Source: Naegleria gruberi (lineage: Eukaryota). Taken from it: a stretch of DNA of 1,637 nucleotides. The stretch lies in the NCBI GenBank assembly GCA_000004985.1, contig GG739361.1. One strand, written 5' to 3'. The notes below the pieces were generated by a model, which was not told the origin of the DNA, made no database searches, and saw only the letters and a program-made list of their open reading frames with translations. A program made the position numbers and the translations under genes. How positions within the stretch are numbered: position 1 is the first letter of the stretch; every line of letters starts with the position of its first letter. Below are positions 1 through 1,108 of this stretch, piece by piece.

Positions 1-945
1 TTTAGTTTTCACTGATTCTTGATCAAAATATTTAACTCCAAAACTGTGACAATAAGACAAACTCACTGTCTTATTTGTAATTTTTGTGATAGCTCCATGG
101 ATTGTCTTATCTGAAATTTGCTTTTTAGCATCTCTTTGGGATCTAATATCAGTAATTACAGAAACAATTTCATCACTTGTTAATTTTAGAGATTTTCTAC
201 CTCTTGCTAATGTTTCTTTTCCAGTCAAACTACCATTATCAAATTGTTTCAATAATCTTCCTAACTGATCAAGGGTAATCTTATTTTGCTTGCAATATAC
301 TGATTTAGATCCATACTCTCTTTTTGGATACTTTGTGGTGTATTGTATGGCATGTGTATACATTTCTTCTCGTGTTAGTTGTTTGTAAGAGGTAACCTGT
401 TTATTGTTGAAAGATAAAACAGGCATCACTTTAGTATTTGATGATGAAGTGCCAGTATCTGACGAATTGTTGGTAATTTCCTTTTGTTTGATGGTCCATT
501 CATAAATCAAAATATCAGCTTTTTGCATAATATTGTCCTTCGGAGATGGTGATGAAGAAAATAATTTAGAAATAATTTCTTGTACCATTGTTTCTTTAGA
601 TGATGATAATCCAAGTGTAACTTTAAATTCTTCTTTCAATAAATCTCTCAAGATTCTATTTGATAATAACCGTAACTTTGTTGATAATTTCTTGCATGCT
701 GCATCATAGGCTTCGAATGATGAAGTAACTGTTTGTGTGACATCTTGGGTGCCATTTTTTTGAGTTGTTTGAGTTAAGGAGCTTCTTTCATCCGGAGATT
801 TTTCTTGTCTTGCATATTGAGTTGTTGATGTTGCCCAATCATTGAATTCTAAAGAGTCCAGCTTTTCAATATCAGTTGAAGAAACTGTTTTTGGTGCTGT
901 GTTGTGTGTGGTTGAGAGTTTAATGGCCTTTCTAATTCTTCTCAT
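1..945 (-). CDS. 3'-truncated protein-coding gene (315 codons in window). Hypothetical protein with a Ser/Thr-rich low-complexity N-terminal half and a basic, helix-rich C-terminal segment. First ATG is at 945..943 and the frame stays open to position 1. Translation begins MRRIRKAIKLSTTHNTAPKTVSSTDIEKLDSLEFNDWATSTTQYARQEKSPDERSSLTQTTQKNGTQDV... and ends ...YCKQNKITLDQLGRLLKQFDNGSLTGKETLARGRKSLKLTSDEIVSVITDIRSQRDAKKQISDKTIHGAITKITNKTVSLSYCHSFGVKYFDQESVKTK (continues beyond window)
   Basis: I translated the minus strand by hand in the frame whose + strand codons start at 1,4,7... No + strand TTA/CTA/TCA triplet (a minus-strand stop) occurs in that frame from 1 to 1068, which is 356 consecutive sense codons. 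The first minus-strand stop (+ TTA) is at 1069-1071. For ~32% GC DNA this is very unlikely by chance. Codon usage is typical yeast: AGA Arg, TTA/TTG Leu, CAA Gln, GAA Glu, TCA/TCT Ser. The ATG at 945 is preceded on the minus strand by AAAAAAAAACAAT, giving A at -3 in an A-rich leader, which is the yeast start context. It is absent from the ORF track presumably because it has no in-window stop. Confidence 0.72.
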   Translation of the reverse strand, partial: MRRIRKAIKLSTTHNTAPKTVSSTDIEKLDSLEFNDWATSTTQYARQEKSPDERSSLTQTTQKNGTQDVTQTVTSSFEAYDAACKKLSTKLRLLSNRILRDLLKEEFKVTLGLSSSKETMVQEIISKLFSSSPSPKDNIMQKADILIYEWTIKQKEITNNSSDTGTSSSNTKVMPVLSFNNKQVTSYKQLTREEMYTHAIQYTTKYPKREYGSKSVYCKQNKITLDQLGRLLKQFDNGSLTGKETLARGRKSLKLTSDEIVSVITDIRSQRDAKKQISDKTIHGAITKITNKTVSLSYCHSFGVKYFDQESVKTK

Positions 946-1108
946 ATTGTTTTTTTTTGAATTGATTATGTTGATTTCGATCTTGTGCTTTTTATCGGAA
1001 AGGTTCAATTTCGTTTTCAAATTCGAACTGGAAAATCCATAAAAATCAAGAATTGTAAAGTCCTTTAATTACGTTTTTATTAAAAAATAAAATTTATTCT
1101 AACCGCGA

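Follow-up and report, generated by a model that had tools for sequence, protein, structure and literature searches.

The transposases pogo, Tigger and Fot belong to the pogo superfamily of the IS630-Tc1-mariner group. In transposases of this group, the terminal repeats of the element are recognized by a bipartite DNA-binding region, and the endonuclease of the pogo/Tigger type is represented by the Pfam family DDE_1. CENP-B, TIGD, JRK and POGK are domesticated DNA-binding proteins that derive from pogo. The pogo superfamily is characterized by a DDE_1 core whose spacing is DDxD, by one or two helix-turn-helix (HTH) motifs at the N-terminus, and by terminal inverted repeats (TIRs) with TA-type duplications; the DNA-binding domains are CENP-B_N, HTH_psq or BrkDBD plus HTH_Tnp_Tc5, and in the family Mover the DNA-binding domain is undetectable by hmmscan (PMC7386202). 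Ulp1 (C48) domains are documented on transposases of Ginger1 and Mutator (PMC2836005). Our analysis concerns a stretch of 1637 bp from Naegleria gruberi, which at its full length is called the window here. We consider it probable that the window covers a gene's upstream DNA and its first 315 codons, and that this gene belongs to a pogo-type DDE transposase family, which is small and restricted to Naegleria.

A protein-coding gene on the minus strand of a Naegleria gruberi scaffold

The preliminary description of the window had drawn attention to a stop-free frame of 1068 nt (356 codons) on the minus strand. Translation of positions 1-1068 shows no stop, and thus no in-frame minus-strand stop lies between positions 1 and 945. 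Upstream, the frame is closed by a TAA (tta on the plus strand, 1069-1071); the left edge of the contig cuts its other end. The open stretches in all other frames of the window are at most 73 codons long, and in 1000 mononucleotide shuffles the longest open stretch had a mean of 75 codons and a maximum of 152 versus the 356 observed, which rules out a chance open reading frame (ORF).

The ATG at 945-943 (cat on the plus strand), preceded by AAAAAAAAACAAT, is the first one in the open frame, whose 41 upstream codons contain no Met. Its context is as favorable as had been claimed, with an A at -3 following a run of nine A. We take this ATG as the start codon because the public Naegleria gruberi model (P0001) begins at the same position, because the N-terminus MRRIRK(A/V)IKLS is kept in the paralogs P0002 and P0003, and because the paralogous locus L001 carries an in-frame TAA immediately 5' of its ATG. 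The coding sequence of 315 codons occupies positions 1-945 of the minus strand; its 5' end is complete, and its 3' end is cut by the contig edge. The in-frame open extension of 123 bases (946-1068, minus strand) is most likely 5' leader or promoter, i.e. non-coding and outside the gene.

The source of the DNA follows from the same public model: across 293 aa, the window product (315 aa) is 100% identical to P0001, a Naegleria gruberi "predicted protein, partial". The gene is already in public databases, annotated as a partial hypothetical protein, and the window is a complete unplaced mini-scaffold of Naegleria gruberi, an AT-rich heterolobosean amoeba. With 31% GC in the window and 77% A+T at third codon positions, the A/T-rich codons that had been described as yeast-like are confirmed, but a yeast origin is ruled out by the match to P0001. 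A giant-virus origin is ruled out as well, since scans of viral collections yielded no relatives. Taken together, the identity to P0001, the conservation among paralogs and the TAA at L001 bear out the proposal of a real minus-strand protein-coding gene that starts at position 945.

The last residue of P0001, 293 (window position 67), lies directly ahead of the hexamer GTGAGT (61-66, minus strand), which reads as codons 294-295 (Val-Ser) and has the look of a splice donor. Probably, this hexamer was mis-called as a donor site. Residues 294-315 (VSLSYCHSFGVKYFDQESVKTK, starting with VSLSYCHSFGVKYF) are conserved in P0002, P0005 and P0006; therefore, the coding sequence runs through to position 1, and the public partial model can be extended by 22 codons.

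None of this is visible from the list of ORFs that accompanied the window. At a threshold of at least 60 aa, this list contains solely 86-268 (plus strand, GTG start, 60 aa) and 842-1042 (plus strand, TTG start, 66 aa), and the long gene is missing from it since ORFs running over an edge, i.e. without a stop in the window, are omitted. Both listed ORFs are antisense by-products, as had been supposed: the first lies inside the coding sequence and has no in-frame ATG start, the second overlaps the 5' end of the coding sequence and the leader, and a Pfam search assigns neither to a family (no match for 86-268; a lone noise match with E = 1 for 842-1042). They are unlikely to be genes in a eukaryote because neither begins with ATG. 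Moderately long stop-free ORFs arise on the T-rich antisense strand because the sense strand is A-rich. An interpretation from the track alone would indeed be misleading, as it reports two spurious antisense ORFs and misses the only gene. The lesson for method is that a bacterial-style track, which drops edge ORFs and accepts GTG and TTG starts, misrepresents a small eukaryotic scaffold. The observation itself was correct yet ordinary and holds little surprise for a specialist. A scan of the window against Rfam and for tRNAs gave nothing above noise.

Relatives with a catalytic region and the putative DNA-binding part in the window

When 1.84 billion representative proteins were scanned exhaustively with HMMER, only five relatives were retrieved (P0001, P0003, P0004, P0005 and P0006), all of them from Naegleria or from metagenomes. 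P0004 and P0006 (920 aa, E-value 2.2e-8) belong to Naegleria gruberi; P0005 (E-value 2.3e-9) and P0003, a protein of the P0002 type, come from metagenomes. The nearest full-length paralog, P0002, is colinear with the window protein at 53% identity. Scans of viral, prokaryotic and JGI metagenome collections with the window protein gave no relatives and no further copies, and word-indexed homolog searches with P0006 and a family alignment (A6) returned solely P0006 itself and the chimeric P0009, which is discussed below. In the region 925-1010 of L001, P0003 tracks P0002 closely until 'GKEKLS' and then diverges abruptly and stops (ILYHQL*), which may reflect a truncation of the copy, a rearrangement or a chimeric assembly.

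The window protein shows homology to DDE-bearing proteins, specifically to their N-terminal third. Its residues 77-314 are colinear with residues 74-321 of P0006 (pairwise E-value 6e-18), and beyond this part P0006 has a Pfam DDE_3 match (residues 442-514, E-value 5.8e-5, under the curated cut-off) and aspartates 366, 466 and 501 in FDET, LLWDN and SPLDN contexts with DD34D spacing. A second line of evidence comes from P0005. It is encoded on three metagenome contigs that are near-identical (L002-L004), and a 461-aa ORF follows it in a different frame. A slip of 2 nt (ggtgttcatATattgaa; about 1085-1125 in L002, repaired at ~1085-1095) splits the transposase into ORFs of 273 aa and 461 aa, and the same lesion is present in all three contigs, which stem from three datasets. 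Once the slip is removed in L002, the result is a 733-aa protein that is 48% identical to P0006 over the catalytic region, keeps the three aspartates and matches Pfam DDE_1 with 26.2 bits versus a cut-off of 22. The DDE_1 match and the conserved aspartates therefore assign these proteins to a family of DDE transposases that is of the pogo/IS630-Tc1-mariner kind. In alignment A6, the contig breaks off ~44 residues short of the position where the full-length relatives have their first catalytic Asp.

Further towards the C-terminus, residues 760-830 of P0006 contain Ulp1-like motifs (HWYLLIYD..FDSF..QVDGNHCGD), noted by eye; the P0006 C-terminus gave no match to the Peptidase_C48 profile. Residues 306-420 of the second L002 ORF match Peptidase_C48 (PF02902) below threshold (18.6 bits versus a cut-off of 20.7, E-value 1.8e-3). 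In the Ulp1-like FDSF motif of the L002 copy, the expected Asp is replaced by Ser, and this substitution together with the frameshift suggests a decaying copy. No TIRs were seen when they were looked for at the L002 locus. An unrelated ORF lies 32 bp upstream of the copy, and a BTB_2 gene lies downstream.

Given these relatives, the part encoded in the window would be the non-catalytic front end of a pogo-type transposase of the IS630/Tc1/mariner group, consisting of a basic N-terminus, probably disordered linkers rich in Ser and Thr, a conserved helix-linker-helix motif, and two HTH bundles with a basic linker. If the copy is intact, the DDE domain would follow beyond position 1, and so would, as the full-length relatives suggest, a Ulp1-like cysteine-protease domain at the C-terminus. 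The window protein is predicted to bind DNA, this copy would be classified with pogo, and it may still continue into a DDE domain.

The structure of the front end was assessed by AlphaFold2 (AF2). A full-length model (mean predicted local distance difference test score, pLDDT, 43.6) served solely to find one confident region; residues 181-315 were then modeled from a five-sequence family alignment (mean pLDDT 77.8). This domain model predicts two three-helix bundles separated by a basic linker of ~20 residues (RGRKSLKL). The first HTH-type bundle (residues 192-236; window 238-372, minus strand) has a pLDDT of ~87 and helices at model positions 12-25, 31-41 and 45-56, and it coincides with the most conserved stretch of the family, EYGSKSxYCKQNKI..QLGR. 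The second HTH-type bundle follows the linker (residues 257-307; window 25-177, minus strand). Foldseek of the domain model versus PDB produced no match at an E-value of 0.1 or below (best 0.15), and the top of this non-significant list consists mostly of two-module DNA-binding domains (TnsB, CENP-B, Pax5, Mos1 and DUX4). In a separate structural ranking, entries lower in the list include single bundles of the Myb and homeodomain type, Brinker, CENP-B RP1, Tc3 transposase, TnsB and IstA. A bipartite HTH fold in residues 181-315 is reasonably supported as a prediction, and its position in the protein and the weak structural ranking would be consistent with kinship to the CENP-B_N/HTH_Tnp_Tc5 pair.

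Sequence profiles were less informative about this region. A Pfam search with the whole window protein, its C-terminal 110 aa and a SAP-like segment gave only noise (DUF3924 and DUF3349 below cut-off); PDB sequence searches with the window protein, P0006, the HTH profile (A4) and the DDE profile (A5) gave nothing useful; and hhalign of A4 versus an approximate CENP-B N-terminal sequence was not significant. The SAP-like segment refers to a helix-linker-helix motif N-terminal to the bundles (residues 93-128, LLSNRILRDLLKEEFKVTLGLSSSKETMVQEIISKL; window 562-669, minus strand), which is conserved in P0002, P0003 and P0006 and has low AF2 confidence. By eye it resembles SAP; with the SAP profile (PF02037), residues 81-129 and their equivalents in P0002 and P0006 gave no Pfam match at E-values up to 10.

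A rough Nei-Gojobori estimate (NG86) for the window coding sequence versus its paralog at L001 gave a synonymous divergence (dS) of 0.77 and a ratio of nonsynonymous to synonymous divergence (dN/dS) of 0.44 for the whole comparison, with 0.53 for the N-terminal part and 0.23 for the first HTH module. These values indicate purifying selection on the protein, strongest in the putative DNA-binding part.

As would be expected for a transposase of the pogo superfamily, Naegleria gruberi possesses multiple members of the family, with P0001 (the window), P0002, P0004, P0006, P0007 and P0009 distributed over six different scaffolds. The sequences of P0006 and P0007, on separate scaffolds, agree at 916 of 920 positions (99.6%). 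A truncated third copy, the gene model P0009, is 96% identical to P0006 over residues 1-147 before it turns into RCC1 repeats. Together, these proteins suggest that transposition took place recently and that one gene is chimeric or was mis-predicted. Over the HTH region, P0004 shares 94% identity with the window; it then presents colinear pieces of the P0006 DDE core and the Ulp1-like His box and looks like an internally deleted copy that was stitched together by the gene predictor. The P0006 and P0007 copies, the gene model P0009, the pieces in P0004 and the frameshifted L002 all point to mobility of the wider family.

Upstream DNA and alternative readings of the gene

The DNA upstream of the gene shows three features. 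A block of ~30 nt (CTTTACAATTCTTGATTTTTATGGATTTTCC; 1030-1060, minus strand), 86-116 nt upstream of the ATG, is near-identical at positions 39-68 of L001, although the leaders around it, like the proteins, are only ~50% identical between the two loci. Its role may be that of a promoter, of a leader element or of a transposase-binding element. Within the block, the window has an out-of-frame ATG that opens an upstream ORF of 7 codons, which is not the case in L001. Further upstream, 174-241 nt from the ATG, a tandem repeat of 22 bp in 3.1 copies (TTGTTGTGTGATAATTCGTACT; 1119-1186; Tandem Repeats Finder score 101) includes two exact copies versus 0 expected from 200 shuffles. It is immediately preceded by a perfect 8-bp palindrome (CTCGCGAG, 1111-1118), a GC-rich island in AT-rich DNA. 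In an element of this kind, the block, the palindrome and the 22-bp repeats could be promoter elements or candidate subterminal repeats for transposase binding. Searches of sequence collections with the 30-nt block and the 22-bp repeat gave no matches. At the right edge of the window, a plus-strand ATG in A-rich context (AGAAAAAAATGG) opens a frame of 15 codons (MVIRTESSTSLSSVL, 1592-1637) that runs off the contig; this could be the start of a divergently transcribed neighbor.

How far the gene extends beyond position 1 is the point on which its interpretation depends. The strongest rival holds that the window copy is a DNA-binding-only derivative like P0002, truncated or domesticated and without the catalytic domain, whose role would be to regulate through DNA binding or to repress the parent element. 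Several observations favor it and weigh against a complete transposase gene: P0002, which shares the N-terminus MRRIRK with the window protein, terminates with an acidic tail shortly behind the HTH region, and its homology to P0005 and P0006 reaches no further than 'ESPYE'; the dN/dS of the window versus the P0002-like L001 stays below 1 and has its minimum in the HTH part, which shows past constraint on the DNA-binding region; and the ~30-nt upstream block is conserved between the window and L001. However, P0002 is a gene model only, and P0004, which is so close to the window in the HTH region, does continue into DDE-like and Ulp1-like pieces. Moreover, the window ends ahead of the point where the two readings would differ. 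We regard a DNA-binding-only derivative as a serious possibility that is nevertheless rather unlikely; most of the remaining probability goes to a transposase gene, intact or decaying, of which the window would contain the 5' part.

Far less probable is a lineage-specific host gene unrelated to mobile elements, whose likeness to P0005 and P0006 would reflect a shared DNA-binding module. Such a gene would agree with the failure to place the window protein in any Pfam family and with the confinement of its relatives to Naegleria-like sources. The colinearity with P0006, however, spans ~240 residues, including the part N-terminal to the HTH bundles, and P0004 ties the HTH region of the window to DDE-like sequence through their 94% identity. 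A frame open by chance, or a non-coding, viral or bacterial contaminant, has nothing but the small size of the contig in its favor and is effectively refuted by the length of the frame in comparison with the shuffles (356 versus at most 152 codons), by conservation at the protein level with a dN/dS below 1, and by the absence of relatives in the viral, prokaryotic and JGI metagenome collections and of Rfam or tRNA matches.

Based on the preferred reading, a pogo-type transposase-family gene, a functional label can be given to a handful of Naegleria gruberi "predicted proteins": they would belong to a pogo-type transposase family, of which the window encodes the DNA-binding front end. This label, the model extension by 22 codons and the apparent Ulp1-like domain on full-length members are what the analysis adds to the public record. 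One recent survey detected only 0.28% transposable elements in the Naegleria gruberi genome (bioRxiv 10.64898/2026.06.24.734286); it is in this genome that a divergent family of DNA transposons is indicated. We also offer, tentatively and as a proposal that we hold to be doubtful as a whole, a wider scenario. It envisages a pogo-like clade, so far undescribed and restricted to Heterolobosea, with a transposase made up of a SAP-like motif, a highly divergent bipartite HTH region, a DD34D core and, at the C-terminus, an Ulp1-type, SUMO-protease-like domain. This clade would have been active recently in Naegleria gruberi, as suggested by the pair of 920-aa copies with 99.6% identity. DNA-binding-only derivatives such as the window gene and P0002 would have arisen from it and been held under purifying selection as regulators or element repressors, with the 22-bp repeats as possible binding sites.

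Comparison with described transposases and domesticated proteins

The window gene differs from the domesticated proteins CENP-B, TIGD, JRK and POGK: no significant sequence similarity to them was found, and nothing points to a host function, a fixed single-copy locus or orthologs in other species. Ginger1 and some Mutator-like elements may share one feature with the family, a Ulp1 fusion: P0006 and L002 carry the C-terminal motifs HW.LLI.D ... Q.DG.HCGD. This assignment lies below the Pfam cut-off, and the region is located entirely outside the window. Unlike in these elements, the core is pogo/Tc1-mariner-like and not integrase-like or MULE-like (Mutator-like).

A further comparison is with the pogo superfamily itself, from which the family differs in several respects: the DNA-binding region of the window is matched by no Pfam HTH model, an additional conserved helix-linker-helix motif precedes the HTH region, and full-length members possess a C-terminal Ulp1-like region, of which PMC7386202 makes no mention for pogo. 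There are similarities as well. Full-length relatives contain a region of the DDE_1/DDE_3 type with D..D-34-D spacing and DETG, LxDN..H and PLDN motifs; the family is present in multiple copies in one genome; and the N-terminal region in the window is predicted to form paired three-helix HTH bundles, as does CENP-B_N together with HTH_Tnp_Tc5 in pogo.
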